A stretch of DNA of 31,770 bases. Source: Eledone cirrhosa. Its lineage: Eukaryota. The stretch is taken from positions 1-31,770 of the forward strand of contig CAXHJY010000512.1 of the NCBI GenBank assembly GCA_964016885.1. Reading direction: 5' to 3'. Of this stretch, positions 187-30,547 are shown piece after piece. A model generated the notes under the pieces. The model worked only from the letters and a program-made list of their open reading frames with translations, was not told where the DNA came from and did no database searches. The translations under genes were made by a program, and so were the position numbers. The number at the start of each line of letters is the position of its first letter. Position 1 is the stretch's first letter.

Positions 187-252
187 ACATATACATATAG
201 ATATATATACATATATATATATATACATATACATGTATATATATACATATAT
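1..252. repeat. degenerate (AT)n/(ATAC)n microsatellite
   Basis: Seen directly: TA runs punctuated by C. Confidence 0.97.
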
Positions 253-596
253 GGAGGCACATGGCTTAGTGGTTAGAGCATTGGCCTTGCAATCGAAAGG
301 TTGTGAGTTCAATTCCCAGACCGGGTGATGTGTTGTTTCCTTGAGCAAGACACTTTATTTCACATTGCGCCAGTTTACTCAGCTGTAGAAATGAGATGAT
401 AGGGACTGGGATCCCTATCATTCCACTGCAAAGTGGTCGTGGAGGTGCCACGGCAAAAAAGCACCCAGCACTCACTGTAAATGAGGTTGGTGGTAGGAAG
501 GGCATCCAACTGTAGAAATCAAGCCAGAATCAGTTCCCGTCCCACCCTTGCAAGCAGGGAAAAGTGGACGTAAAATGAAATGATGATGAATGATGA
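253..596 (+). mobile_element. tRNA-derived CORE-type SINE with RTE-LINE-derived 3' tail
   Basis: Pol III A box TGGCTTAGTGG (262-272) and B box GTTCAATTCC (307-316). Central CCTTGAGCAAGACACTT...CAGTTTACTCAGCTGTAGAAATG resembles the MIR/CORE domain. 433-596 matches the LINE 3' UTR at about 17842-18105 and ends in (TGA)n. Confidence 0.88.
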
Positions 597-735
597 TATA
601 TATACATATATATATATACATATATATATATACATATATATATATACATATATATACATATATATATATATATACATAGATATATATCCATATATATATA
701 TACATATATATATACATATATATATATACATATAA

Positions 736-939
736 CTATACGAACATGCCAGACAACAACACAACATTAACAGAGACAACATAGAAATTAGAAAAATATC
801 TAAACATAGAAATGACCCAGCAGATAGGCAAATCAGAGAGGACATTAAAATAGAACTTAGAAGGCCAAGGCTAAACAGAAAAAATGAATGGAATAACAAC
901 AACACCCAAACAAACAACACTGACCTAAGAGAAGTATAA
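736..939 (+). pseudogene. C-terminal fragment of a Penelope-like element GIY-YIG endonuclease
   Basis: Hand translation [52 protein letters not shown]...* fits the PLE EN C-terminal pattern (EH..H, R.IRE.I.I...P.LN); a hammerhead-like motif follows downstream. Confidence 0.65.
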
Positions 940-1200
940 ATAAATAAATAAATAGATAAATAAATAAATACATACACAAGCAGAATAACAAAAAACACAT
1001 ATGAACACACACTAGTTAAGATAGAATACAATAACCAATACACAGCCACCCAATCACGAACACACATCAAACAAAACACTATACACACATGCAAACGCAT
1101 GCGCAAAGAAGACAAAATAAAATAAACAAATAAATAAATATATAAACAAACTAATTAAAGATGGCGTAGAAAATACAATGCAACGGGAGGAAACAATACA

Positions 1201-1242
1201 ACCACTGACGATGTTGCAGTTGTGCAACGAAAGAACTTTGAT
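1201..1242 (+). ncRNA. degenerate minimal type I hammerhead ribozyme motif
   Basis: CTGACGA(T) 1205-1212, perfect stem II GTTGCA/TGCAAC, GAAA 1229-1232, minimal stem III, CUU site; stem I only 3 of 4 pairs. Confidence 0.5.
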
Positions 1243-1268
1243 ATACTATATATATGTGTTTGTGTCTA

Positions 1269-1435
1269 TATTGTATCTGTATTTGAGCGTTGGTCAGTCA
1301 ATGGTAACATTGAGGACCGAATAAATTAGAATACCGATATAAAAGACACAGAAGCGAAAACCAACCAAACAGTGAGTGTGTTCTGTTATTAATTCTGGCA
1401 ATATTACACAAATATGACCCTCCCCAAGTATAACA
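1269..1435 (+). mobile_element. possible short solo-LTR remnant
   Basis: Ends in TATAACA with an imperfect inverted match at the left end; internal AATAAA and TATAAAA; no TG start and no clear TSD. Confidence 0.25.
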
Positions 1436-4576
<3,141 letters not shown>

Positions 4577-5129
4577 GGTGGCTGCCAACTCGTTTTCGAG
4601 TACGGCCACTACTTTATATCCATGTAGGAGAACCCCTACTGATGCGCTGAACGAGTGTGACTTTTTAGTCCAGCCAGCGACTTGAAAGCTCTGGTACAAA
4701 CACTACACTTGTGACAATTATTGACACATAGTGCTGGGCCATGGTACCATGTGACGACAAATGCAGAGAGATCTCCAGATACAAAGCAATGCCTGTGCCG
4801 TGAAGCTTTTATAGTGAGCAAGGCACTGCACAATGCCAGTCCCACTCTCTTAACCAAGATGATATTTACCAAAAAGAAGAACAAGTCAACATCATTGGAT
4901 ACCATCAGGGTTGCAGGTGTTATATCAGAGTTTTCCTTCTCCTAGAATTCCGCCTTGACAAAGGCTAAGGGGTCATCTCTCCCGGTGATTTTGGATGGCC
5001 ATTGACTCTTAAGAGCTCCTTTGCCTTTTGACAGGTTTTGTTTTTAGTCCTGCAGGATGTCCAAAGTCACCCTCCTCACCAAGAAACCTTGGTGGGGTTG
5101 CCAGTTTAGTCGCCAACGACCCGACCATG

Positions 5130-8064: not shown

Positions 8065-8655
8065 GGTGGCTGCCAACTCGTTTTCGAGTACGGCCACTAC
8101 TTTACATCCATGTAGGATAACCCCTACCGAAGCGCTGAACGAGTGTGACTTTTTAGTCCAGCCAGCGACTTGAAACCTCTGGTACAAACACTACACCTGT
8201 GACAATCATTGACACATAGTGCTAGGCCCATGGTAGGACAATTATTGACACATAGTGCTGGGCCCATGTGAGGACAAGTGCAGAGAGATCTCCAGATATA
8301 AAGCAATGCCTGTGCCGTGAAGCTTTTATAGTGAGCAAAGGCACTGCACAAAGCCAGTCCCACTCTCTTAACCAAGATGCTATTTACCAAAAAGAAGAAC
8401 AAGTCAACGTCATTGGATACCATCAGGGTTGCAGGTGTTATATCAGAGTTTTCCTTCTCCTAGAATTCTGCCTTGACTAAGGCTAAAGGGGTCATCTCTC
8501 CCGGTGATTTTGGATGGCCATTGACTCTTAAGAGCTCCTTTGCCCTTTGACAGGTTTTGTTTTTAGTCCTGCAGGATGTCCAAAGTCACCCTCCTCACCA
8601 AGAAACCTTGGTGGGGTTGCCAGTTTAGTCGCCAACGACCCGACCATGAGACAGG
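8065..8655 (-). mobile_element. bipartite non-autonomous RTE (BovB-like) element, copy 2
   Basis: Highly similar to 4577-5132, with an extra GACAATTATTGACACATAGTGCTGGGCCCATG-type repeat unit at about 8200-8268. Confidence 0.85.
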
Positions 8656-9100: not shown

Positions 9101-10820
9101 ATTGACCTAGATGAAATGCAGTTCGGGTTTGTGTCAGGCAAAAGCACCACAGACGCTCTTTTCATAGTACGGACAACTACAGGAGAAGTACCTAGCTAAA
9201 GGTAAACCCCTCTACTTAGCTTTTGTCGACCTGGAGAAAGCCTTCGACAGAGTCCCCCGCTCCATTATCTGGTGGGCTCTTAGAAAACTAGGCGTTGACG
9301 GATGGCTTGTGAGGGCTATACAAGCCATGTATAAAGAAACAGTCAGCAAGGTTAGAATTAACAACGAATATAGTGAAGAGTTTAGCGTAAAAGTTGGCGT
9401 CCATCAGGGCTCTGTTCTCAGCCCCCTACTATTTATTATTGCCCTTCAGGCTATAACAGAGGAGTTCAAGACAGGCTGCCCATGGGAACTCCTATACGCA
9501 GACGACCTGACACTCATAGCGGAATCAATGGCCGAGCTAGAGAAGAAATTCCAAACATGGAAGCACGGGCCTAGAGTCAAAAGGACTTAAAATTAACCCT
9601 GGCTAAGACTAAAGTTCTAGTTTGTAGGAAAGAAAACAAGGCGGCGGTCCCTTCTGGAAATGGTCGTGCTCGGTATGTAGGAAAGGCGTAGGTAGAAACT
9701 CCATCTTATGTCCTAAATGCAAAGTATGGGTGCATAAAGATGTAGTGGGATCACAGGTAAGCTAACTAAGAACATAGACTTTACATGTGGCCGGTGTTCT
9801 GGTGCAATAAGTAGCAGCAAGTGCCCACAAAATACTAGCTCTTTCAATTGCGCAGAGGGTTCTATAGAAATAGTGGACAGCTTCCGTTACCTGGGCGATA
9901 AAATCAGCAGTGGGGGAGGGTGCTCTGAAAGTACTGTAGCTAGAGTCAGAACTGGTTGGAAAAAGTTCAGAGAGCTTATACCACTATTAGCTGCTAAAGG
10001 GTTCTCCCTAAAAATGAAAGGCAGGTTGTACGATGCCTGCATACGAACAGCAATGTTGCATGGTAGTGAGACCTGGGCATTGTGTGCAGAGGATATACGC
10101 AGACTAGAGAGGAACGAAGCTTGCATGCTCCGCTGGATGTGTAACAGTAATATACTGTGAACGGCAAAGCATAAACGAACTAAGGAAAAAATAGAGATAA
10201 GAGGGATCAGATGTTGTTTACTCGAGAGAAGGCTGCGTTGGTATGGACACGTGATGCGCATGAAAGTCGATAGCTGTATTACAAAGTGCAGGGCAATAAA
10301 GATAGACGGTAGCCACGGAATAGGCAGACCTAGAAAAACATGGGATGAGCTGATAAACTCCGACCTCACACACTTACACCTCTCAAGACAATGTCCACTG
10401 GACCGAGACCTTTGGCGGTACTCAGTAACAGAGAAGACCCGCCTTGCCAGTAGGCATCTCTAACAAAATACACCCCGTCCCGCCACCACCCACACCCCAT
10501 CCACACCACCCCGTTCTATGTAAAGTTATGTTGGTGCCGCGCCATCCAGCCGAAACAAATGAGATCGTGTAGGTGTCACGACAAAAAAAACACACCAGTC
10601 CACGCTGTAACTGTGGCCGTGTAGGCAACACGGTAAAAACCTCCCAGACCCACACTGTAAATGTGGTTGGTGTTAGGAAGGGCATCCAACTGTAGAAAAC
10701 CTGCCAGACAGTCCTATGCGAGCAAGACAATCACTCTTGCCTCAAGTGGGACTACCCCCGTCCAAACCCATGCAAGCGTGGAACACGGACCTTAAACGTT
10801 GATGATGATGATGATGATGA
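9101..10820 (+). mobile_element. 5'-truncated RTE-clade LINE, family A copy 1 (frameshifted RT)
   Basis: DEMQFGF, DLEKAFDRVP, GVHQGSVLSPLLF, YADD, RRLRWYGHV across several frames; 3' UTR 10464-10800; (GAT)n tail. Confidence 0.95.
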
Positions 10821-10914: not shown

Positions 10915-10960
10915 TGATTGCTGCCCCCTCGTTATCGAGTATGGCCATTGCACGAGGAGA
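10915..10960 (-). mobile_element. isolated BovB-like RTE 3' terminus
   Basis: Minus strand GGCCATACTCGATAACGAGGGGGCAGCAATCAT, homologous to the 3' ends at 4577-4606 and 8065-8094. Confidence 0.75.
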
Positions 10961-10984
10961 AAAAAAAAAAAATAATAATAATAA

Positions 10985-11015
<31 letters not shown>

Positions 11016-11017
11016 AA

Positions 11018-11560
11018 AAATGATCCACTGGCACCTGTGCAAAGTAAACAATTTACCACATTCTGAGAAATGGTATGAGCATAGGCCAGAGGCGGTGATG
11101 GAGAACAATCAGGTGAAGGTGCTGTGGGATTTTAGGATACAGACGGACAAAAAACTGGAACACAATAGACCTGACCTGGTGGTTGTGGACAAAGAAAAAA
11201 GATTGTGTCTGATTGTGGATGTGGCCTGCCCGTTCGACACGAGAGTGCAAGAGAAGGAGAGGGAGAAAATTAACCGATACCAGGACGTAAAGTGGGAGGT
11301 GAAAAGGATTTGGAACTGCCATGAAGTCAAAGTGATCCCGATTGTCATAGGCGCACTGGGGGACTATCTCCAAAGTTTCCAGGGATGGTTGAAGAAGATC
11401 GGCCCCTTCACGCTTTTTGGAACGCTTCAAAAGGCATGCTTGCTTGGAACAGCAAGAACCCTCCGATACGTCCTGAATATCTGAGGCTGCAGGTAGTGGC
11501 TTGATATTCAATCCAACGGACTTTCCAGTTAACCAACATCAATGACTGAGATTCAAGGAA
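11018..11560 (+). mobile_element. 3' fragment of R4/Dong-clade non-LTR retrotransposon (restriction-like endonuclease domain)
   Basis: IHW.LCK, KWYEH.P, LWDF.IQTD, NRPDLVVVDK, IVDVACP, EK..RY, IPIVIGALG, QKACLLGTA; stop at 11484; (AAT)n on both sides. Confidence 0.9.
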
Positions 11561-11790
11561 TAATAACAACAATAATAAAAATAATAATAATAATAAATAA
11601 ATAAAAATTAAAAAAAAAAAATATATATATATATATATATACATATACATACACACACACACACATACATTAATAATAATAATAATAACAACAACAATAA
11701 TAATAATGACAACAACAATAATAATATACATATACATCTACACACACACGCACACACACAAGCATATCTACACACACACACACACACACG
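11561..11790. repeat. compound (AAT)n/(A)n/(AT)n/(CA)n microsatellite
   Basis: Seen directly. Confidence 0.9.
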
Positions 11791-12870
11791 ATAGCAACTA
11801 ACAGCGCTGCGATCGAATATGGCTTTTAACCCAGCCAATGATCTAAAATGTCTTGCATAGAGTCGGCAACCAAAACATTTACTGGGAATAGTCGGCTGTG
11901 GTTGGAGTTTGTGTACTTTTGCATGTCGCTTGAGCCCTCCTGCTGATTTACATTCTCTACCACATGTTTGGCAAGCATGATGAGTAGCATCTCCAACAGC
12001 AGCCTGGTCGTCAACCACTGGTCTTACTTTATGACTGCGAAGATGACTTTCGAGTCCAGCTTTGCTTAGGCAGAGTCTCGCACATACGCTGCATGTCAGC
12101 ACCATAGGAGGACCCTCGCCGTCTGGAAGTGCAACAGCAATGCCCTTCCTCACATCCCGCTTTACTTTCTCGTATGCGATTCGAGATGCCTCAAAGGCAA
12201 CTTTTCCCTCATATACAGTCCTTTCTCCATTTATTACGATCAGGCAGATATGTTAGCGTCTTTCAGAGAGGCTTTCAAGGAATCCTTATACCTCTTTTTT
12301 GGTTTATGTGGCGGTCGTTTTCCTTTAACCAACTCTCCATAAAAGAGTTGTTTTGATATTCTAGAATCCTTCATCCTGGCAAGGTGACCACTCCAACGGA
12401 GTCGTTGCTTAAGCACAACGGCTTCTATACTGTCACACAAAGGGCTTTCCAAAATAATTTGTTCACAAGCGCAGTCTTAACAGCAAATCCTACCCCAGCC
12501 TCTCTTCTGGTTCCTTCATCTCTTCCTTTCCAGAAGAATGTATATTCTCCACAAAATTCCGTAAGATGACCATCTCCAGCTAGCCTCGTCTCAGATAAAG
12601 CCACGATGTCAGATCGCAACGTCGAAGCTCCTTTCAACAAGAGCGGTCCTTCGTTCAGGACGCCCCAAGGAATCCCTGTCAAGCAGCGTCCGTACGTTCC
12701 AGCAGCCAAGACTAAATGCCTTGTTTGGCTCTATTACAATGGCACGATGACGAGCGGGCCCAGGCTGTGATAACCTGGGGGCCCCTGCCCCTTATTGCCA
12801 ATGATCTTTTTTTGTTCCAGAACCTAAATTGCCAATTATCTTTTATATTGTTCTGGAACATCATTGAATT
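11791..12870 (-). mobile_element. internally deleted BovB-like RTE: APE N-terminus fused to post-RT C-terminus with three C2H2 fingers
   Basis: GCWNVRTL, RPERRTA, DIVALSETRL, YTFFWKG, GVGFAVK, then an abrupt jump near 12455 to QRLRWSGHLARM..KQLFYGEL..KRYKDSLK; fingers CSVC..HLRSH, CQTC..HAKVH and a decayed third. Confidence 0.88.
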
Positions 12871-16737: not shown

Positions 16738-18105
16738 ATTGGGGTCCACCAGGGCTCTGTTCTTAGCCCTCTCCTGTTCATCATAGTCCTGCAGGCAATA
16801 ACGGAGGAGTTTAAGACCGGATGCCCATGGGAACTCCTGTATGCTGATGACCTCACACTCATAGCTGAATCTATGGTAGAACTAGAGAATAAATTCCAAA
16901 CTTGGAAGCAGGGACTAGAAAGAAAGGGTCTCAAAGTCAACATGACAAAGACTAAGGTCCTAGTAAGTAGACAAGAAAACAGAACCCAGATCCCCTCCGG
17001 GAAATGGCCTTGCTCAGTATGTAGGAAAGGTGTAGGTAGGAACTCCATTCTCTGCCCCAAATGCAAACAATGGGTACACAAGAGATGTAGCGGGATTTCA
17101 GGAAGCTTAATTAAGAATGTAGGATTCACATGCAGCAGCTGTGCTGAGACAGCAAGCAGCAAACAGCCACAGGAAACAAGTACCACCAATCTCTGGGAGG
17201 GCCCTGTAGAAACAGTAGACAGCTTCTGCTACCTAGGTGACCGAATTAGCAACGGAGGTGGGTGTTCAGAAAGTACAATAACTAGGGTAAGAACGGGATG
17301 GAAGAAGTTTAGGGAACTAATACCACTGCTAGCTGCAAAAGGCTTCTCCCTCAGAATGAAAGGCAGACTGTCTGATGAGTGTATCCGAACAGCGATGTTG
17401 CATGGTAGTGAGACCTGGGCGCTGAAGGTGGAAGACTTACGTAGATTAGAGAGAAACGAAGCCTGCATGCTCCGATGGATGTGTAACAGTAATATACGTG
17501 AACGACAAAGCATAAATGAATTGAGAGAGAGACTGAGCATAAGAGGAATCAAATGCTGTGTGCAGGAGAGGCGGTTGCGCTGGTATGGACATGTGATGCG
17601 TATGAAGGATGACAGCTGCATAAAAAGGTGCAGAGCACTAGAAGTTGATGGAAACCGCGGAGTGGGGAGACCCAAGATGACCTGGGATGAGGTGAAAAAG
17701 CCGACCTTACCCAATTACACCCCTCAAAGGCAATGACACACGACCGTGACTTCTGGCGTCACGCAGTAATACAGAGTACCCGACCTCCCATGGGTACAAG
17801 CTGAAGCATATAGACAATATGCCCCCACACCCCCACCGCAAGGTGGTCGTGGAGGTGCCACGGCAAAAAAGCACCCAGCCCACACTGTAAAGTGGACGTG
17901 TAGGCACCACGAAAAAGCACCCAGCACTCACTGTAAATGAGGTTGGTGCTAGGAAGGGCAGCCAGCTGTAGAAATCAAGCCAGATCAGTTCCTGTATGAG
18001 CAAGGCATGGTCAGCCGACCAGACACTGCCCACAACAGGACAACCCGTCTAACCCATGCTAGCGTGGAAGAACGGACGGTGATGATGATGATGATGATGA
18101 TGATG
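16738..18105 (+). mobile_element. 5'-truncated RTE-clade LINE, family B (diverged relative of family A)
   Basis: GVHQGSVLSPLLF, YADD, Cys/His insert, RRLRWYGHV; frameshift near 17700; 3' UTR and (GAT)n tail. Confidence 0.95.
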
Positions 18106-18509
18106 ATACATATACATATACATACATATACATATATATATATATATATATATACATATATATACATATATTAATACATATATATATATATATACATATA
18201 TGTATATATACATATATATATACATATATATATACATATATATACACATATATATACATATACATATATATACACATATATATACATATACATATACATA
18301 TATATACATATACATATATATACATACATATATATACATATATATATATATATACATATATGTATATATAGATATATATATACATATATATACATATACA
18401 TACATATATATATATATATAAATATACATATATATATATATATACATATATATATACATATATATACATATATGTATATATACGTATATATATATATACA
18501 TATATATGT

Positions 18510-18578
<69 letters not shown>
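18106..18578. repeat. (AT)n/(ATAC)n array
   Basis: Seen directly. Confidence 0.95.
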
Positions 18579-18580
<2 letters not shown>

Positions 18581-18582
<2 letters not shown>

Positions 18583-18797
18583 AATAAAAGGAATTTCAAT
18601 TTTCAACCTTCAGTTGAAAATTGAAAACTTGACTGTCACCACACATTATGAAGATTGCGAAAGCATGAAAGTACTTGTTCAATTAACAGTTAGCATTTAA
18701 TATTCTACCATACTATTTCATTCTAATACCATTATAAATTTTAAGGGATTGTAAATAAAATGAGTAAATCAGACAAAGTTGGAATTCCTTTTATTAA
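18581..18797. mobile_element. MITE-like element with terminal inverted repeats
   Basis: TTAATAAAAGGAATT (18581-18595) and AATTCCTTTTATTAA (18783-18797) form a perfect 15-bp IR, extendable to about 23 bp with 2 mismatches; TA-rich flanks. Confidence 0.55.
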
Positions 18798-18840
18798 TAT
18801 AATCTTCTATACACAATCATACACACCTGTGTAAATTTAT

Positions 18841-18917
18841 CTATCTATCTATATATTTATATATATATATATATCTATATACACATATATATAACTTTGA
18901 ATAACTTTGATATATAC

Positions 18918-18949
<32 letters not shown>

Positions 18950-19037
18950 GTATATACACATATATATACATATATGTATATACACATATATATACATATA
19001 TATATATACACATATATATACATATATATATATACAC

Positions 19038-19068
<31 letters not shown>

Positions 19069-19155
19069 CATATATACACATATATATATACATATATATA
19101 TATACACATATATATACATATATATATATACACATATATATACATATATATATAT

Positions 19156-19206
<51 letters not shown>

Positions 19207-19399
19207 CACATATATATATACATATATATATATATGTATATACACATATATATACATATATATATACATATATATACATATATATATACATATATATACA
19301 CATATATACATATATATATACATATATATATACATATATATACACATATATACATATATATATACACATATATACATATATATATACATATATATATAC

Positions 19400-19431
<32 letters not shown>

Positions 19432-19433
19432 AC

Positions 19434-19468
<35 letters not shown>

Positions 19469-20965
19469 CATATATATACATATACATATAAATACATATA
19501 TATATACATATATATATATATACATATACATATATATACATATACACATATATATATACATACATATATATACATATACACATATATATATATATATATA
19601 CATATATACATATATATATACATATATATATACATATATATATATATACATATATATATACATATATATATACATATACATATATACATATATATATATA
19701 TATACATATACACATATATATATATATATACATATACACATATATATATATATATATATACATATATACATATATATATACATATATATATACATATATA
19801 TATATATACATATATATATACATATATATATATATACATATATATATACATATATATATACATATATATATATATACATATATATATACATATATATATA
19901 CATATATATATACATATATATATATATACATATATATACATATATATATACATATATATATACATATATATATATATACATATATATACATATATATATA
20001 TACATATATACATACATATACATATATATATATACATATATACATACATATACATATATACATATATATATACAAATATACATATACATATATATATACA
20101 TGTATATATACAAATATATATACATATATATACATATACATATACATATATATATACATGTATATATACAAATATATATACATATATATACATATACATA
20201 TATATACATATATATACATATATATATACAAATATATATATACATATATATATACATGTATATATACAAATATATATACATATATATACATATATATACA
20301 TATATATATACAAATATATATACATATACATATATATACATATATATATACAAATATATATACATATACATATATAAATATATATACATATATATATATA
20401 CATATATATATATACAAATATATATACATATACATATATATATATACATATATATATACAAATATATATACATATACATATATATACATATATATATACA
20501 AATAGATATACATATACATATATATATACATATATATATACATATATATATACATATATATATACATATATATATATATACAAATATATATACATATACA
20601 TATATATACATATATATATATACATATATATATACATATACATATATATATATACATATATATATACATATATACAAATATATATACATATATATATATA
20701 CAAATATATATACATATACATACATATATATATACATATATATATATACATATACATATACATATATATATATACATATATATATACATATATATATACA
20801 TATATATATATACATATATATATATACATATATATATACATATATATATATACATATATATATACATATATATACATATATATATATACATATATATATA
20901 TATACATATATATATACATATATATACATATATATATATATACATATATATACATATATATATAC

Positions 20966-21008
<43 letters not shown>

Positions 21009-21283
21009 TATATACATATATATATACATATATATATACATATATATATACATATATATATATATACATATATATACATATATACATATACATATATATA
21101 CATATTTACATATACATATATATATATATATATATATACATATATACATATATACATATACATATATACATATATATATACATATATATATATACATATA
21201 TATATATATACATATATACATATACATATATACATATATATATACATATATATATATACATATATATATACATATATATATAC

Positions 21284-21346
<63 letters not shown>

Positions 21347-21359
21347 CATACATATATAC

Positions 21360-21392
<33 letters not shown>

Positions 21393-21405
21393 CAAACATA
21401 TATAC

Positions 21406-21458
<53 letters not shown>

Positions 21459-21471
21459 CATACATATATAC

Positions 21472-21507
<36 letters not shown>

Positions 21508-21519
21508 ATACATATATAC

Positions 21520-21590
<71 letters not shown>

Positions 21591-21612
21591 CATATATATA
21601 TATACATATATA
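18841..21612. repeat. 2.8 kb (AT)n/(ATAC)n array with ACAAAT variant block at about 20070-20710
   Basis: Seen directly. Confidence 0.97.
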
Positions 21613-23970
21613 TATGACTTGGGCTTTGGTGTTGGTATAGAGCAGTGATATCAGGTCCACTATCCTCTTGGGGATTCCATAAGCCTGTAAGATCTTCATC
21701 AGGCAGTAACAGTCCACAGAATCAAAGGCCTTCCTAAAGTCAATGAAAACCATGACCGCAGGAAGGCACTTTGCTCTAGCTCCCTCTAATATCCTTCTCA
21801 GCATCAGGATGTGACTGGTGGTTGATCTACCCTCTCTGAAGCCGTTCTGGTTGTCCCTGAGCTTCTTCTCCATCTCAGGCTGGATCCTGTTAAGAATCAT
21901 CCTGTTGGGGGTCTTTGCCACAAGTGACGTCAGTGAGATCCCCCGGTAGTTGTTGGTGTTAGAGAGATCTCCCTTCTTTGGCACTGGGACGATGTTACTG
22001 ATCCTCCACTGATTCGGGGCAACTCCTTTCTCCAGTGCCCCGTTACAGAACCCCAGGATGATATCATCAAAATCACACCTCTTCATCACCTCTGATGCCA
22101 CTCCATCTTCTCCATGAGCCTTGCCCTCCTTGATCTTCTTATTGGCTCTCTGAAGCTCCTCTCTGGTGAAGGGCTCTGTCTCAACATCCAGTTCCTCAAA
22201 CAGCCGCCTGATCTCCCCGGTGCTCTGGGCTGTGGAGGGTGGCTCTCCTAGTAGGGTCCTAAAATGGTCTAGCCATTTCCTCTTCCTATCCTCGGGCCCC
22301 GTTCCCTGGATCTGACTCGAACACCTTTTCTTCCTCCCTGTGATCTCGTTGATGATCATCCAGCTCCCCTTACATCCAGATCTGTCAACCGCTCTCTCCA
22401 CACTTCTGATCTTCTCTATCAGTGCCTCCTCTCTGACCTCAGTGTAAGCGGTACAGAGCTCTTCCCTCATCACCTCCACAGTCTCCATCCTCTCCTCCGT
22501 AGGATCAGCATAGAATTGGTCCCTGGCAGCTTTCAGGTGTTCTCTGGCTGCACACACTTTTGGGTTTGCAGAGCTGACGTGCTTCCCTTTGTTCTTTTTC
22601 CTCGGCACCAGGGTTTCACTTGCTTTCGCCACTGCATTGGTGAAGTGCCCGTACCTCCTCGTCACACTCTCCTCAGTCCATCCAATCTCTCTCTCCTCTG
22701 ACTCTCCACACAGAGCACTAAACCTGTTTCTCACTTCCACTGTGAACCTCTCCTGTAGCTTATCATCTTCCTTGAAAGCTCCCCAGTCATAGATTGTTCT
22801 CCGGGGCTGAGCCTTGCTCTTTCTTAAGCTTATGCGGACCTCACTCATAACAAGCCAGTGGTCACTACCCAGTGTACTGAAATAGCTGTATGGTTCCGTG
22901 TTCAGAACACTATTCCGCCACTTTTTCCTCACCAGAATGAAATCAATCTGGGACTTGGACAGGTGCATATCTGAGATGTAGGTCCACATCTTCCCCAGAT
23001 TCTTCCTAAACCTTAGGTTGGTCGCCATCAAGTTCGCCTCCAGCAGGGTGTCACTCAGTAGTCTTCCATTTCGGTTGGTGTTGTTATGGAAGTACCAGCA
23101 AGGATCTTCACTGCCCTCCTTACTCAGATGTGCATTGAAGTCCCCCAAAACAAGCAGGATATTGTGTGCCTGAGTGGTGTTGACAGCTCTACACACCTCC
23201 TCATGGAACTCCTCGGCATTCACATCACTGTCCCCCTCGGTTGGACTATAGGCTGAGATGACTGTCAGTCTTGGGTTTCCATTGAAGGTCACCCTCAACA
23301 CTCGCGGGGAGATAGGCATTATTTCCCTCACCAACAGATTGGTTTTTGCACTGAACACAAAACCCACTCCTCCTACTGCAGCATTTGTTGTGTTCTTCAC
23401 TGCCGATGTAGTGATGAGCTGGCTCTTCCTCCCGATCATCACACTCCTCACGGGCTCATCGTGTAGAATCCTGTGTTCTTGGATCGCAAGTATCTGTATA
23501 CCACTCTCCTCGAACAGATGTCCCTACTCCTCTCTCTTCTCCAGCGTTCGAATAGTCCTCACATTCAAAGTGCCCATTTTGATGGCTCTTCTACAGGACA
23601 AAACTGCATTCGTTATATTTGTCTCAGAGACAGCTGATCCATCATCCACTGGCCCTCTCTGTGGCTCTAAGCCAGCAGAGTCATAACGACCAGGCTGCTC
23701 CTTGACAGTGTAATTAGGGGCTCTAACCCTAGTGCTGTTAGATCGACTCTCCATATTTCTTTTCAATGGCTTACAATACCTTACCGGCGCCACTCGAATA
23801 AGGTAGATATTTAACCCATAAATGGAGCCCTAATAGGTACTACCACCCCGGGCCAGGGCAGACCTGGGAGTCATGACAACTAAGGGGTAACTCCACATTC
23901 CCCACATCTCCTGAACTCCCGAACTGGAGCCTTGCCACTGGATGTAGTTTAATGTCATACCCAGGACACC
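21613..23970 (-). mobile_element. inverted 5' part of a full-length RTE LINE (family C): 5'UTR, APE endonuclease, N-terminal RT
   Basis: ATG 23754; GTLNVRT, in-frame TAG at 23526-23524, [54 protein letters not shown]; ends [11 protein letters not shown]. Confidence 0.95.
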
Positions 23971-24931
23971 TGATGGGATGACAGAGTTCTTTGAGATACT
24001 GGCTGGAGTGCTCCAGGGAGATACATTGGCTCCCTACCTTTTTATCATCGTAGTGGACTATTGTATGCGCCTTGCACTGGAGAAACACCAGGACTCTGGC
24101 TTTACTGTAGCACCGGCTCAGAGCAGGAGAGTTGGGGCGAAAAAGGTATCGGATGCTGAATTTGCCGACGACATAGTTTTGGTGACAAATACAGTGAAGG
24201 AGGCAGAGGATTTGATGCGGGAGGTTGAGACTGTGTCGATGAGTGTGGGGCTGAGAATGAATGAGACTAAAACAAAATATCTGGTAGAGAATGTTGAGAA
24301 GCCAGAGGGGATCACTAATGTAGGCGGGAAGCCGCTGGAATTGGTTGAGGACTTCCTGTATTTGGGAGCAAAGATTGGGAATACGGAAGATAATGTGGTT
24401 GAGAGGAAGAGCAAGGCCTGGGCGGCGTGTCACAGCTTGAGATCGGTCTGGAAGTCGGACCTTCGTAGAGACCTGAAAATCCGCTTCTTCATTGCTGTAG
24501 TGGAGTCTGTGCTGCTGTATGGGTCTGAGACTTGGACACTGACCAAGAGACTCACTCAGATGGTGGATGGGTGCTACACGAGAATGCTGAGGATGGCTCT
24601 GAACATTAATCAGTATACACTGAGGATGAAAAACTCAGAGCTGTATGGGAGCATCCCAAAAGTCAGCTCAAAAGTGACACAGAGGAGACTGAGGTTGGCT
24701 GGACATGCTGACCGACATCCAGAGTTGACATTGCACTCAGTGCTCCTTTGGGAGCCCCTACATGGACACACTAGAAGAGGAAGACTAAGGATAACATATG
24801 TTGATGCCCTAAGGACAGACACTGGTCTGTTGGAGATGCAGGATATGGCAGCGATAATGAGGGACAGAGACCGCTGGAGAGAACTCGTCCATGGATCTCG
24901 GGAATTTTACCCGCCTTAGAGATAGATAGAT
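23966..24931 (+). mobile_element. 3' part of the same family C RTE: C-terminal RT and short (GATA)n tail
   Basis: TPDGMTEFFEILAGVLQGDTLAPYLF, FADD, DFLYLG, YGSETWTL, RRLRLAGH; stop at 24919 followed by AGATAGATAGAT. Confidence 0.95.
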
Positions 24932-25076
24932 ATATATATATACATATATATATATACATATATACGTATATATATACATATATATATATACATATATATG
25001 TATATATATACATATATATATATATATATACATATATATAGAAACATATATATATATATACATATATATGGAAACA

Positions 25077-25141
<65 letters not shown>

Positions 25142-25185
25142 ATACATATACATATATATATACATACATATACATACATACATAT

Positions 25186-26547
25186 ATCATCATCATCATC
25201 ATCATCAACGTTTAACGTCCGTGTTCCACGCTTGCATGGGTTTGGACGGGGGTAGTCCCACTTGAGGCAAGAGTGATTGTCTTGCTCGCATAGGACTGTC
25301 TGGCAGGTTTTCTACAGTTGGATGCCCTTCCTAACACCAACCACATTTACAGTGTGGGTCTGGGAGGTTTTTACCGTGTTGCCTACACGGCCACATTACA
25401 GCGTGGACTGTGTGTTTTTTTGTCGTGACACCTACACGATCTCGTTTGTTTCGGCCTGGATGGCGCGGCACCAACATAACTTTACATGGAACGGGGTGGT
25501 GTGGATGGGGTGGGGGTGGTGGCGGGACGGGGTCTAGTTTGTTAGAGATGCCTACTGGCAAGGCGGGTCTTCTCTGTTACTGAGTACCGCCAAAGGTCAC
25601 GGTCCAGTGACATTGTCTTGGAGAGGTGTAAGTGTGTGAGGTCGGAGTTTATCAGCTCATCCCATGTTTTTCTAGGTCTGCCTATTCCGTGGCTACCGTC
25701 TATCTTTATTGCCCTGCACTTTGTAATACAGCTATCGACTTTCATGCGCATCACGTGTCCATACCAACGCAGCCTTCTCTCGAGTAAACAACATCTGATC
25801 CCTCTTATCTCTAATTTTTTCCTTAGTTCGTTTATGCTTTGCCGTTCACGTATATTATTGTTACACATCCAGCGGAGCATGCAAGCTTCGTTCCTCTCTA
25901 GTCTGCGTATATCCTCTGCACACAATGCCCAGGTCTCACTACCATGCAACATTGCTGTTCGTATGCAGGCATCGTACAACCTGCCTTTCATTTTTAGGGA
26001 GAACCCTTTAGCAGCTAATAGTGGTATAAGCTCTCTGAACTTTTTCCAACCAGTTCTGACTCTAGCTACAGTACTTTCAGAGCACCCTCCCCCACTGCTG
26101 ATTTTATCGCCCAGGTAATGGAAGCTGTCCACTATTTCTATAGAACCCTCTGCGCAATTGAAAGAGCTAGTATTTTGTGGGCACTTGCTGCTACTTATTG
26201 CACCAGAACACCGGCCACATGTAAAGTCTATGTTCTTCTGTGATCCCACTACATCTTTTATGCACCCATACTTTGCATTTAGGACATAAGATGGAGTTTC
26301 TACCTACGCCTTTCCTACATACCGAGCACGACCATTTCCCAGAAGGGACCGCCGCCTTGTTTTCTTTCCTACAAACTAGAACTTTGGTCTTAGCCAGGTT
26401 AATTTTAAGTCCTTTTGACTCTAGGCCGTGCTTCCATGTTTGGAATTTCTTCTCTAGCTCGGCCATTGATTCCGCTATGAGTGTCAGGTCGTCTGCGTAT
26501 AGGAGTTCCCATGGGCAGCCTGTCTTGAACTCCTCTGTTATAGCCTG
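25186..26547 (-). mobile_element. 5'-truncated RTE LINE, family A copy 2
   Basis: Reverse complement of about 9448-10820 at very high identity; small deletion near 26238; (GAT)n tail. Confidence 0.95.
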
Positions 26548-26613: not shown

Positions 26614-27097
26614 CATACATATATATATACATACATATACATATACATACATATATATATACATACATATATATATACATACATATATATATATATATAT
26701 ACATACATCATCATCATCATCATCATCGTTTAACGTCCGTGTTCCAAGCTTGCATGGGTTTGGATGGAGGGTTTTCCCACTTGAGGCAAGAGTGGTTATC
26801 TTGCTCGCATAGGACTATCTGGCGGGTTTTCTACAGCTGGATGCCCTTCCTAACACCAACCACATTTACAGTGTGGGGCTGGGAGGTTTTTACCGTGTTG
26901 CCTACACGGCCATATTACAGCGTGAACTGTGTGTTTTTTGACGTGACACCTACACGATCTCATTTGTTTCGGCCTGGATGTTGTGGCACCAACATAACTT
27001 TACATTGAAAGGGGCGGTGTGGATGAGATGGGGGTGGTGGGACGGGAGTGTATTTTGTTAGAGATGCCAACTGACTGTAGTAGGTTTTACTTTGTAC

Positions 27098-30000
27098 TTA
27101 GGTAAGGCGGGTCTTCTCTATTACTGAGTACCGCCAAAGGTCTCGGTCCAGTGACATTGTCTTGGAGAGGTGTAAGTGTGTGAGGTCGGAATTTATCAGC
27201 TCGTCCCAGGTTTTTCTGGCTCTGCCTATTCCGTGGCTACCGTCTATCTTTATTGCCCTGCACTTTGTTATACAGCTATCGTCCTTCATGCGCATCACGT
27301 GACCATACCAACGTAGCCTTCTCTCGAGTAAACAACATCTGATCCCTCTTATTTCTAATTTTTTCCTTAGTTCGTTTATGCTTTGCCGTTCACGTATATT
27401 ACTATTACACATCCAGCGGAGCATGCAAGCTTCGTTTCTCTCTAGTCTGCGTATATCCTCTGCACACAATGCCCAGGTCTCACTGCCATGCAACATTGCT
27501 GTTCGTATGCAGGCATCGTACAACCTGCCTTTCATTTTTAGGGAGAACCCTTTAGCGGCTAATAGTGGTATAAGCTCTCTGAACTTTTTCCATCCAGTTC
27601 TGACTCTAGCTACTGTACTTTCAGAGCACCCTCCCCCACTGCTGATTTTGTCACCCAGGTAACGGAAGCTGTCCACTATTTCTATAGAACCCTCTGCGCA
27701 GTTGAAAGAGCTAGTATTTTTGGGGCACCTGCTGCTACTTATTGCCCCAGAACACCGGCCACATGTAAAATTTATGTTCTTAGTTAGCTTACCTGTGATC
27801 CCACTACATCTTTTATGCACCCATACTTTGCATTTGGGACACAAAATGGTGTTTCTACCTACGCCTTTCCTACACACTGAGCATGGCCACTTCCTGGAGG
27901 GGACCGCCGCCTTATTTTCTTTCTTACAAACTAGAACTTTAGTCTTAGCCAGGTTAATTTTAAGGCCTTTTGATTCTAGGCCGTGCTTCCATGTTTGGAA
28001 TTTCTTCTCTAGCTCGGCCATTGATTCAGCTATGAGCGTTAGATCATCTGCGTATAGGAGTTCCCATGGGCAGCCGGTCTTGAACTCCACTGTTATAGCC
28101 TGGAGGGCAATAATAAATAGTAGGGGGCTAAGAACAGAGCCCTGATGAACACCAACTTTTACGCTAAACTCTTCACTATATTCGTTGTTAATTCTAACCT
28201 TGCTGACTGTTTCTTTATACATGGCTTGTATAGCCCTCACAAGCCATTCGTCAACGCCTAGTTTTCTAAGAGCCCACCAGATAATGGAGCAGGGGACTCT
28301 GTCGAAGGCTTTCTCCAAGTCGACAAAAGCTAAGTAGAGGGGTTTACCTTTAGCTAGGTACTTCTCCTGTAGTTGTCGTACTATGAAAAGAGCGTCTGTG
28401 GTACTTTTGCCTGACACAAACCCGAACTGCATTTCATCTAGGTCAATTCTCTCTCTGATTAGTTGCGCTATTACTTTTTCCGTGACCTTCATGACCTGGT
28501 CGATTAATTTAATGCCTCTATAGTTACTCCTATCTAGGGCGTCTCCTTTACCCTTATAACAGTTAACGATGATGCTGCTATGCCAGTCCTTCGGAACAAC
28601 CCCATTCTGTACGACTTGGTTAACTATGCGGGTGACCATGGTGTGTCCCACCGTGCCAGATGCCTTCAGCATCTCAGCAACTATTTCCGAAGGCCCAGCC
28701 GCCTTACCCGTCTTCATATCCTTGATTGCCTTACTTATTATACTCCCCTCGACTAACACTGCTGGTCCCTCTATTGGGTCGATATGGGGGAGACTGTCTT
28801 TCTCCCATTTATTCTCCTCATTTAGTAGCCTTTCATAGTGACACTTCCAAGCTACCTTCTTATCAGCGTCGGTGATGGCAAGTGTGCCATCGTCGTTTAG
28901 TACACACTTCTCCCCGACAATATCACGGTTTTCCTTGACGCATTGCCTAGCAATCCTGAACACCTCACGTTTTTGGTCATCGCGTTGTAGAACATGCTTG
29001 AACTTTCTTTCCTCAGCTTCCCTTCTTGCTAAGTACACTTGTCTCCTAGCTTCCCTCCTGGCCACTTGATAGTCTTCTCTACTTCCCCCATCCCGCCATA
29101 CTTTCCAAGCCTGCTTTTTGGCCTTAATTGACCCCTCCACCTTACTGTTCCACCACCATGTTACTCTCCTCCTGCCTACAGGCCTGCTCCAGCCACAGAC
29201 TTCGTCTGTCGCCAACAGCAGGTTTGCTTTCAGAAATTCCCACTCTCCCTCTATATTGTCCGACTCTAAATGTTCTTCCTTACTGTCGAAAGCATCAAGT
29301 AATATGCTTTGAAATTTATTCCTGGCTGTGGGGTCCTTTAGCTTCCATATTTTTCTCCTGAGGATAGTCCTCTTCTGCTGTCGAGTACGTCTCGTCCTGA
29401 CTATGAGGTCGCTAATTATCAGTCTATGTTGGGAGGTGCATTCTTCATGGGGGAGGGATTTAGTGTTTACAACAGACACTCTGTCACGTCTTCTGGTAAG
29501 GATATAATCTACCTGGCTTGTGTGTTCCCCGGATCTATAGGTGATCAGGTGATTGTCACGTTTTTTGAAGTTAGTGTTACAGATAGTTAGGTTATTTGCA
29601 TCACAGAATTCCAGGATTCTGGAGCCTTCCTCATTTCTAGTACCAAACCATAGCCTCCATGGATTTCGTCGTAGCCGTCACAATGTTGTCCAACGTGACC
29701 ATTTAGGTCGCCTGCAATAATTATATAGTCACTGTCGGATATTTGGGAGGTAGTTAGCATCAGTGTCTCATAGAATCTGTCTTTTATTGTGCCGGGCAGT
29801 CCGGATTGGGGTGCGTACGCAGATATTACTGTCACCGTAGTTCTATTGAGGACAAGTCGTATTTTAATTATTCTGTCGTTCACTCTATTTACGTCTATTA
29901 TCTTATCTACCCACTTTTCTGCTACCATGATTCCTACTCCACCCAGCCCATCGTCGTTTCCCACCCAGAAAAGCTTATAACATCGTTTTTTACCCTCAAT

Positions 30001-30267
30001 GAATCTAGCAGACCCACCCCTCCACCTGGTCTCTTGAATACAACAAACATCGACCTCCTTACGTTCAAGCATTTCTACAACCTCGTTAGCGCGACCCTTT
30101 AGGGTGCCTACATTTATGGTACCAACTCTAAAGTTTTGGATTGCGTTTGGGGGTTGGGGGCGGTGGGGGACGGGGGGCGATGGTGTTATGTTAGCCCTCA
30201 GCGGTCGAAACAATGAGGAGTGCTCGCATTCTCGTCCAAGAGGTGAATTTGTCTTTATCTTTGGCAT
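27098..30267 (-). pseudogene. APE endonuclease-reverse transcriptase polyprotein (about 1056 aa if one frameshift is repaired)
   Basis: ORFs 29587-30360 and 27098-29479 join by adding one T at 29645-29647 (GGYG-F-GTRNEEG); start codon uncertain (30267 or 30327). Confidence 0.88.
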
Positions 30268-30374
30268 TGTCGCTGAGCGTCCAGATTTTTCTCTCTCTCC
30301 TCCACTTTCCAGGATTCCGCAGTCCATCCATCCATCATATATCGAAAGGCAACCAGGCAAGCGATAGTATAGGC

Positions 30375-30453
30375 CTCTGGCTTCTGATTGGTCCGCGTAA
30401 TAATAATACGGGTGATGCGTGGGGGCTCTGGGTTATGATTGGTCCACGTAATA
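30375..30453. promoter_or_regulatory. two 28-bp direct repeats, each with a CCAAT box and CC(A/G)CGT core (ERSE-II-like)
   Basis: CTCTGG-N4-TGATTGGTCC(G/A)CGTAATA at 30375 and 30426; function inferred only. Confidence 0.45.
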
Positions 30454-30547
30454 GCAATGGGGGGGGCGAGGGGGCGGGAGGGAGGGGGTGGGGGAGCAGT
30501 GTTTTTTGGGTTGGTGGGATGGGGGAGCGACGGGCTGTGGGAGGTGA

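Follow-up and report, generated by a model that had tools for sequence, protein, structure and literature searches.

Here we report that about one third of the sampled copies of a long interspersed nuclear element (LINE) family in the mollusc Eledone cirrhosa are inverted at their 5′ end. One such copy lies at positions 21614 to 24931 of a stretch of 31,770 bp, hereafter the window, which is the entire contig C539 (CAXHJY010000512.1) of a 3.0-Gb assembly (GCA_964016885.1); this copy is known from the assembly sequence alone. It is very probably a LINE of full length with a single open reading frame (ORF) whose first 2,355 nucleotides (nt) were inverted by twin priming in the course of one insertion, as would have happened in roughly a third of the insertions of its family. 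A sequence-only reading of the window had proposed twin priming by an invertebrate single-ORF LINE for this copy. The proposal is supported, at the family level too; what that reading missed, and what is the main point, is the fraction of the family that is inverted. The notable result is this family-level rate, together with the contrast to a neighboring LINE family, rather than the single copy. A mollusc host is borne out by 39 matches in the assembly to the molluscan haemocyanin beta-sandwich family, and the composition, rich in AT microsatellites, may point to an octopod.

5′ inversion by twin priming has so far been described mainly for mammalian L1, for which the model was put forward (Ostertag & Kazazian 2001, as presented in PMC2912911, PMC12016303 and bioRxiv 10.1101/2024.08.27.596794).

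Geometry of the inverted copy

The window was mapped against L102, an intact colinear genomic copy of 3.32 kb with an ORF of 1031 codons at nt 215-3310. By BLASTN, window positions 21614-23968 (minus strand) correspond to element nt 2355→1 (98.9 % identity, no indels) and positions 23966-24928 (plus strand) to element nt 2357→3319 (98.5 %, no indels), which bears out the 5′ inversion described by the sequence-only reading. The two halves are contiguous in colinear copies at 26 of 29 other loci, as that reading had expected, the remaining three having no exact junction anchor. Because the colinear copies carry a single T between the halves (nt 2356), and this T is absent from both halves of the window copy, one base has been lost and the gap is 1 nt. 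The ORF of about 1031 codons that had been rebuilt from the two halves does exist in L102, but the rearrangement is not lossless as claimed; the isoleucine codon at the break had looked whole because its third base comes from the AT array.

The family 5′ end reads TGTCC(TGGG), mostly preceded by an AT run, and in the window copy it is located at the inner (inversion) junction. The earlier placement of the 5′ end at this junction was right, but not its spelling as GGTGT, where GG is the complement of the 3′ half. Since the family begins with TGTCC, the microhomology at the inner junction is ACA (3 nt, 23966..23968), common to element nt 1-3 in antisense and to nt 2357-2359, and not the ACACC of 23966-23970. 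At the outer junction the AT array and element nt 2354-2355 have the 2 nt AT in common (21614..21615), not ATA, and the element begins at 21614 instead of 21613; the common AT would be the internal priming site.

The inverted part (element nt 1-2355; 21614..23968, minus strand) is putatively a second cDNA that was primed internally and reached the 5′ end. It comprises a 5′ untranslated region (UTR) of 214 nt (23755..23968, minus strand, with the element start TGTCC at 23968 and the start codon at 23754), an APE-type endonuclease domain (22849..23265, minus strand; Pfam Exo_endo_phos_2, E=4.8e-7, converted from residues 87-225) and the first half of the reverse transcriptase (RT; 21631..21984, minus strand; RVT_1 profile 1-108, E=2.3e-16). 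The non-inverted 3′ part (element nt 2357-3310; 23966..24919, plus strand) encodes the rest of the RT, with FADD (23990-24301, plus strand; RVT_1 profile 113-194), and the C terminus, ending with a stop codon at 24917-24919. A short (GATA)n tail (24920..24931, plus strand), of a type common to most family copies, stands immediately 3′ of the stop codon and merges into the AT array. AT-rich arrays flank the element on both sides, the left one being the microsatellite array that constitutes the target site (18106..21615) and the right one spanning 24922..25187.

Apart from the inversion, the sole ORF-breaking lesion is, as had been noted before, a premature stop at codon 77 (23524..23526, minus strand). 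It is private, its base being found in 0 of 85 other copies, and was likely acquired after insertion. Private divergence is similar in the two halves (12/2355 nt and 3/954 nt). Because the RT is split ahead of its catalytic motif, between RVT_1 profile positions 108 and 113, the copy would have been dead on arrival; no daughters of it were found, its exact junction occurring once in the assembly.

Both halves carry the linked haplotype A421-C754-G2525-T2821-G2940. Of the 53 sequences that span the five sites, the window among them, 19 have this haplotype, and when each half is compared with 47 long copies, the two sets of distances are correlated (rho 0.83). The halves thus derive from the same subfamily, and an origin from different subfamilies, which the sequence-only reading had named as fatal to its proposal, is not seen. 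Both may have been copied from one RNA molecule, with which a common haplotype is compatible.

Inversion frequency in two LINE families

Exact patterns located 676 family copies with the 5′-end 29-mer and 6,309 with the 3′-end 30-mer. The 3′-anchored sample consists of the first 80 of the 6,309 copies in position order, within the first 87 Mb of C1; 29 of them are 5′-inverted, 49 are colinear and 2 show two 3′ ends head to head. Without three probable duplicates (L168, L216, L204), 27 of 77 copies are inverted (35 %, 95 % confidence interval (CI) 25-47 %), which extrapolates to about 2,200 inverted copies genome-wide if the sampled rate holds. The 5′-anchored sample consists of 90 loci (the first 91 of the 676 5′ matches in listing order), and 14 of these (CI 9-25 %) have the arrangement seen in the window, with the 5′ end joined to a sense piece from inside the element; this extrapolates to a total of about 100 complete-inverted copies genome-wide. 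Breakpoints of these 14 fall within 25 nt of each other in 9 cases, leave gaps of 1.5-2.3 kb in 3, overlap by 77 nt in 1 and lie beyond the retrieved stretch in 1.

Within this inverted class the window copy is an ordinary member. The 5′ end is reached by 3 of the 27 inverted copies, and 6 of the 48 colinear copies are full length (p=1.0); median lengths are 253 nt for the forward part, 264 nt for the inverted part and 314 nt for colinear copies. A special mechanism for completeness was rejected on these counts, and the completeness of the window copy is not the peculiarity it had been taken for. Nor is its near-seamless junction, as 5 of 27 sampled inversions join within ±2 nt (0 nt in L163 and L040) and 46 % of human L1 inversions lie within 20 bp (PMC12016303).

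A second LINE family, family B, served as control. It is represented in the window by a nearly full-length copy at about 26750-30480 (minus strand), encodes an endonuclease, an RT and, after the RT, a PHD finger, ends in a (GAT)n tail, has 27 % protein identity to the RTE-type family described above and counts 13,482 exact 3′ motifs genome-wide. The family B sample covers the first 9 Mb of C1, with 25 of the 39 further loci inside a satellite region. Among the first 30 loci, retrieved to 1.5 kb, 1 of 19 was inverted, 11 having been dropped with the 5′ junction beyond the stretch; among 39 further loci retrieved to 4 kb, none was. Inversions thus number 1 of 58 in family B versus 29 of 80 in the RTE-type family (p=2e-7), or 1 of 55 versus 27 of 77 with duplicates collapsed (p=8e-7). 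The sequence-only reading had suggested counting inversions per family; on these samples the rates are about 35 % and about 2 %.

The TA arrays do not explain the propensity to invert, because AT-array flanks are not significantly enriched (20 of 27 inverted versus 29 of 48 colinear copies, p=0.31) and family B, which also sits in TA arrays, hardly inverts. The proposed priming from a TA microsatellite is compatible with the junction of the window copy, but the arrays leave the propensity of the family unaccounted for. The idea that a self-complementary TA target makes both nicks equivalent finds no support on the same grounds, and L163 is inverted in non-array DNA.

Several further observations concern these repeats. 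Other family B pieces in the window lie at 9101-10725 (plus strand), 25282-26547 (minus strand) and 16739-18003 (plus strand), and the ORF of the long copy is broken near 29590-29677. Loci L276-L300 (C1 7.4-9.0 Mb) form a dense family B cluster, mostly on one strand, in a satellite with a period of ~18 bp, and four family B copies (L252, L257, L268, L282) have a common 122-nt tandem duplication in the 3′ UTR that is apparently a subfamily trait. In the RTE-type family, four copies consist of the 5′ UTR only, breaking off at nt 213, where a short A-rich stretch follows (L094, L124, L127, L142), possibly a non-autonomous derivative or the outcome of internal priming at an A-rich site. Others are short internally deleted derivatives (5′ 160-490 nt plus the last 40-170 nt) or older 162-nt 5′ fragments (L133, L138, L143, L061, L129-L132), and the first 150-170 nt of the element are tandemly duplicated at C2:69698028/69698197, C2:156870182/156870333 and C3:150358755/150358915. 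Elsewhere in the window, a third repeat, whose C terminus is like a zinc finger, is represented by two related fragments (4636-5110 and 8124-8650) with very long AT arrays on either side. Pieces of additional non-LTR elements occupy 10918-11484 (plus strand) and 11608-12730 (minus strand); one of these resembles what we take to be the C terminus of a restriction-like endonuclease, and one resembles an APE endonuclease with C2H2 fingers.

Junctions and the mechanism of inversion

In 18 of the 27 inversions the two breakpoints lie within 20 nt of each other on the element (BLAST ends), compared with a mean of 2.0 and a maximum of 10 in 20,000 shuffles; an exact-match method gives 16 of 27. This adjacency, far above permutation, bears on whether the halves were instead inserted independently, or copied from two RNAs at a single nick, and joined head to head. 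Such joining may occur, as L151 and L220 in our sample show two 3′ ends head to head and some inversions have gaps of 0.6-2.3 kb. On the RNA map of the window copy, however, no more than 1 nt separates the halves; they have a common haplotype, and the left half lacks a 3′ tail, so that we regard this as the least probable of the alternatives. L151 (2753-3942, element-oriented) consists of antisense nt 3321→3045 plus sense nt 2407→3321, and L220 (3264-3947, element-oriented) of antisense nt 3325→3285 plus sense nt 2682→3325, each with 3′ ends on both sides; they may stem from two RNAs primed from two nicks or from a long snap-back.

The 27 inversions include 10 with overlapping halves (up to 24 nt), 15 with gaps and 2 exact joins. 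For outer microhomology, only flanks with alternating AT at their end were scored; a match of at least 2 nt is present in 14 of 21 evaluable pooled inversions versus 13 % in simulation (p=3e-8). Plain truncations show it in 4 of 16 cases (p=0.14; 25 of 41 unscorable). AT-containing priming sites are reused by independent insertions at nt 3037-3038, 3007-3008, 2671 and 2439-2440. A variant of twin priming, in which breakage of the RNA at the breakpoint came first and the nicked DNA ends then primed on the 3′ ends of one fragment each, would account for near-zero gaps such as those of the window, L163 and L040, and for two outer junctions (of 21) that lack microhomology. It is disfavored as the main route because halves can overlap only if one stretch of RNA was intact and was read from both primers; the enrichment of outer junctions for microhomology between target and RNA and the reuse of AT sites speak against it as well. 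We consider it unlikely, if less so than the other alternatives.

Inner junctions have microhomology of at least 2 nt in 15 of 42 cases versus 16 % expected (p=0.002). At the 21 complete-type inner junctions the break always falls at nt 1-6 and none carries a (TA)n run inside the inversion; the extension of the inversion into flanking DNA, a second outcome that the sequence-only reading had considered damaging, is thus not found. A full-length insertion in which DNA recombination or repair inverted the front at a later time, for instance via a self-complementary (TA)n flank, would agree with the position of the window copy in long palindromic AT arrays and would preserve the TSD (target-site duplication), since the inversion would lie inside the element. 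Such a later inversion is nevertheless argued against, because no (TA)n run has been carried to the inner junctions. In addition, 24 of 27 sampled inversions are also 5′-truncated with the outer break at the flank, family B in the same arrays is inverted in only 1 of 58 cases, and the private divergence of the two window halves is alike. We therefore judge it very unlikely.

An extra G at the inner junction, as a cap would leave, was not seen: of 14 complete inversions, 9 still have TG ahead of TCC, and the base in front of it is A five times, T twice, C once and G once; the G at the inner junction of the window is explained by the 3′ half, which supplies it.

TSDs of about 10-12 bp surround the complete inversions L163 and L179 in non-repetitive flanks, and likewise the colinear copies L100, L115, L123 and L145. 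They bear on the possibility of an assembly or read artefact (a chimeric read or a misjoin between repeats) or of cDNA snap-back. The window is a small unplaced microsatellite-rich contig and its junction is seen once, as an artefact would have it; snap-back is known for R2 (PMC11371274) and fits two copies with fold-back 5′ ends, L037 (C4:377400538-377400595) and L077, in which short antisense nt 1-27 or 1-39 adjoin the 5′ end. Yet the same architecture is found again on chromosome-scale scaffolds, at dozens of loci whose breakpoints differ; TSDs and junction statistics are not something an assembler would produce, and the control family lacks this architecture. Fold-back chimeras duplicate sequence, and snap-back is argued against for the window copy because its inverted part has no counterpart in the forward part. 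Artefact or snap-back is thus a highly improbable source of the window copy.

Some observations weigh against twin priming, or weaken the case for it. The window copy has no resolvable TSD, since its flanking array is of low complexity, and a 35-nt candidate match was rejected as low-complexity AT; its junction is unique in the assembly and stands on a 31.8-kb contig; and its 2- and 3-nt microhomologies are weak when taken alone. Across the family, outer microhomology is unscorable in 20 of 41 inversions, insertions were scored at 16 of 42 inner junctions, partly from nearby substitutions, and 5 of 27 inversions have gaps above 100 nt that could come from two RNAs or from later deletion. The rates derive from the first 87 Mb of one chromosome, with an exact 3′ 30-mer required.

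With twin priming as the preferred explanation, we infer the enzyme, the order of events and the use of one RNA molecule to be as follows. The element endonuclease would nick the AT-rich target with a stagger of 10-12 nt, and the bottom-strand end would prime a first cDNA on the (GATA)n tail, copying up to nt 2357. The top-strand end, freed early, would anneal by 2-4 nt to an AT site of the same RNA; in the window copy the ...AT-3′ of the top strand would pair with AT at nt 2354-2355 and prime a second cDNA of 2,355 nt, running off the 5′ end of the RNA. The two cDNA ends would then join via the ACA microhomology with the loss of one base, giving a product with its RT split before the catalytic motif, in which a stop codon would have arisen later.

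Comparison with known elements and significance

RTE elements typically have a single ORF with an N-terminal APE endonuclease and an RT, and no ORF1, C-terminal CCHC finger or RNase H; they are short, and their very short 3′ UTR ends in a short tandem repeat. By anatomy the window LINE appears to be RTE-type. It has a single ORF of 1031 amino acids (aa) after the 214-nt UTR, other frames reaching at most 69 aa, and its protein has no C-terminal CCHC finger and no RNase H. A single protein is stated for RTE in PMC13708176, the length of 3.32 kb with (GATA)n right after the stop fits the RTE range of ~3.2-3.6 kb (PMC10294476), and the TSD of about 10-12 bp in the six copies with informative flanks falls in the RTE range of 7-15 bp, where most values are 10-12 bp (as cited in PMC6007223). 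The best homologues are unnamed or hypothetical (78 % for an unnamed protein, 51 % in Mnemiopsis, 45 % in Branchiostoma); no named RTE reference was among the homologues, PDB returned only distant L1 and R2 proteins and the names in Atlas were generic. One ORF, a (GATA)n tail, AT-rich targets and a length of 3.3 kb separate the element from the L1 clade, which is marked by two ORFs, a poly(A) tail, T-tract targets and a length of about 6 kb, and its closeness to L1 ORF2p is only distant (E=4e-31).

The single ORF with APE endonuclease and RT, the length of ~3.3 kb, the microsatellite 3′ end and the TSD range are common to RTE/BovB-type LINEs, and RTE-BovB is reported to be expanded in cephalopods (PMC10294476). 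The octopus element RTE-2_OV (PMC9115989) differs in the length of its ORF (1109 aa versus 1031 aa here), in its zinc finger, which has no C-terminal counterpart in the present family, and in its UTRs of ~600 nt, compared with a 5′ UTR of 214 nt; the two are therefore probably different families.

Like twin-primed L1, the family combines an antisense 5′ segment and a sense 3′ segment inside one TSD, with close RNA breakpoints, small gaps or overlaps and reused priming sites. Outer microhomology is stronger in inversions than in plain truncations, the same order as in human L1 (PMC2912911), and the segment medians of 253 nt forward and 264 nt inverted compare with 253 and 292 nt for somatic human L1 (PMC12016303). 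The inversion rate of 35 % (CI 25-47 %) stands against 18-22 % (PMC12016303) or ~30 % (PMC2912911) in L1. Unlike L1, the mollusc element is a single-ORF LINE of 3.3 kb without ORF1, has a (GATA)n tail and not poly(A), and inserts into AT-rich targets instead of T-tracts, with TSDs of ~10-12 versus ~15 bp and in a mollusc host. About one ninth of its inversions reach the 5′ end, whereas L1 inversions are typically 5′-deleted.

R2 snap-back junctions (PMC11371274) also carry antisense element sequence at the 5′ junction, but R2 snap-back recopies existing cDNA, whereas the inverted part in the window is the missing upstream part; a snap-back appearance is found only in L037, L077 and possibly L151 and L220. 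De novo inserts of the zebrafish elements ZfL2-1 and Nimb-2_DR had no 5′ inversions, with one Nimb exception (PMC4245944), and the authors linked inversion to L1 features, host factors and TSDs of 10-20 bp. The mollusc family, unlike these elements, inverts at L1 level outside mammals, and its 10-12-bp TSD fits their overhang-length argument. By analogy with that argument, the difference in inversion between families would most likely be due to overhang length and the timing of the second nick.

Term searches of the literature, which miss the prime-sign phrase and most subscription journals, yielded no account of an RTE or mollusc element in which twin priming is frequent. The titles of papers with 'twin priming', among the matches listed, concern mammalian genomes or R2, and the term 'inversion' is absent from the main text of PMC9115989 and PMC13282606.

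If our interpretation is true, the ~2,000 inverted and ~100 complete-inverted copies would form a naturally occurring collection in which second-strand nicking and internal priming could be studied. With a one-protein element that inverts at L1 frequency beside a non-inverting LINE, causes encoded by the element could be told apart from those encoded by the host. When the second strand is cleaved is an open question in target-primed reverse transcription (PMC2881922, PMC6895275), and this timing would become comparable between two families in the same cells. The finding would be relevant, too, to repeat annotation, which counts inverted copies as two fragments, and to gene-writing tools derived from RTE elements; according to PMC13708176, the truncation rates of these tools are undisclosed. 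On balance it seems more likely than not that twin priming at a rate of at least that of human L1 is intrinsic to the single-ORF RTE-type protein of this mollusc, can do without ORF1p, without a poly(A) tail or T-tract and without host factors of mammals, and is family-specific (~35 % versus ~2 %). The propensity to invert may be a trait, so far undescribed in print, of this RTE lineage.

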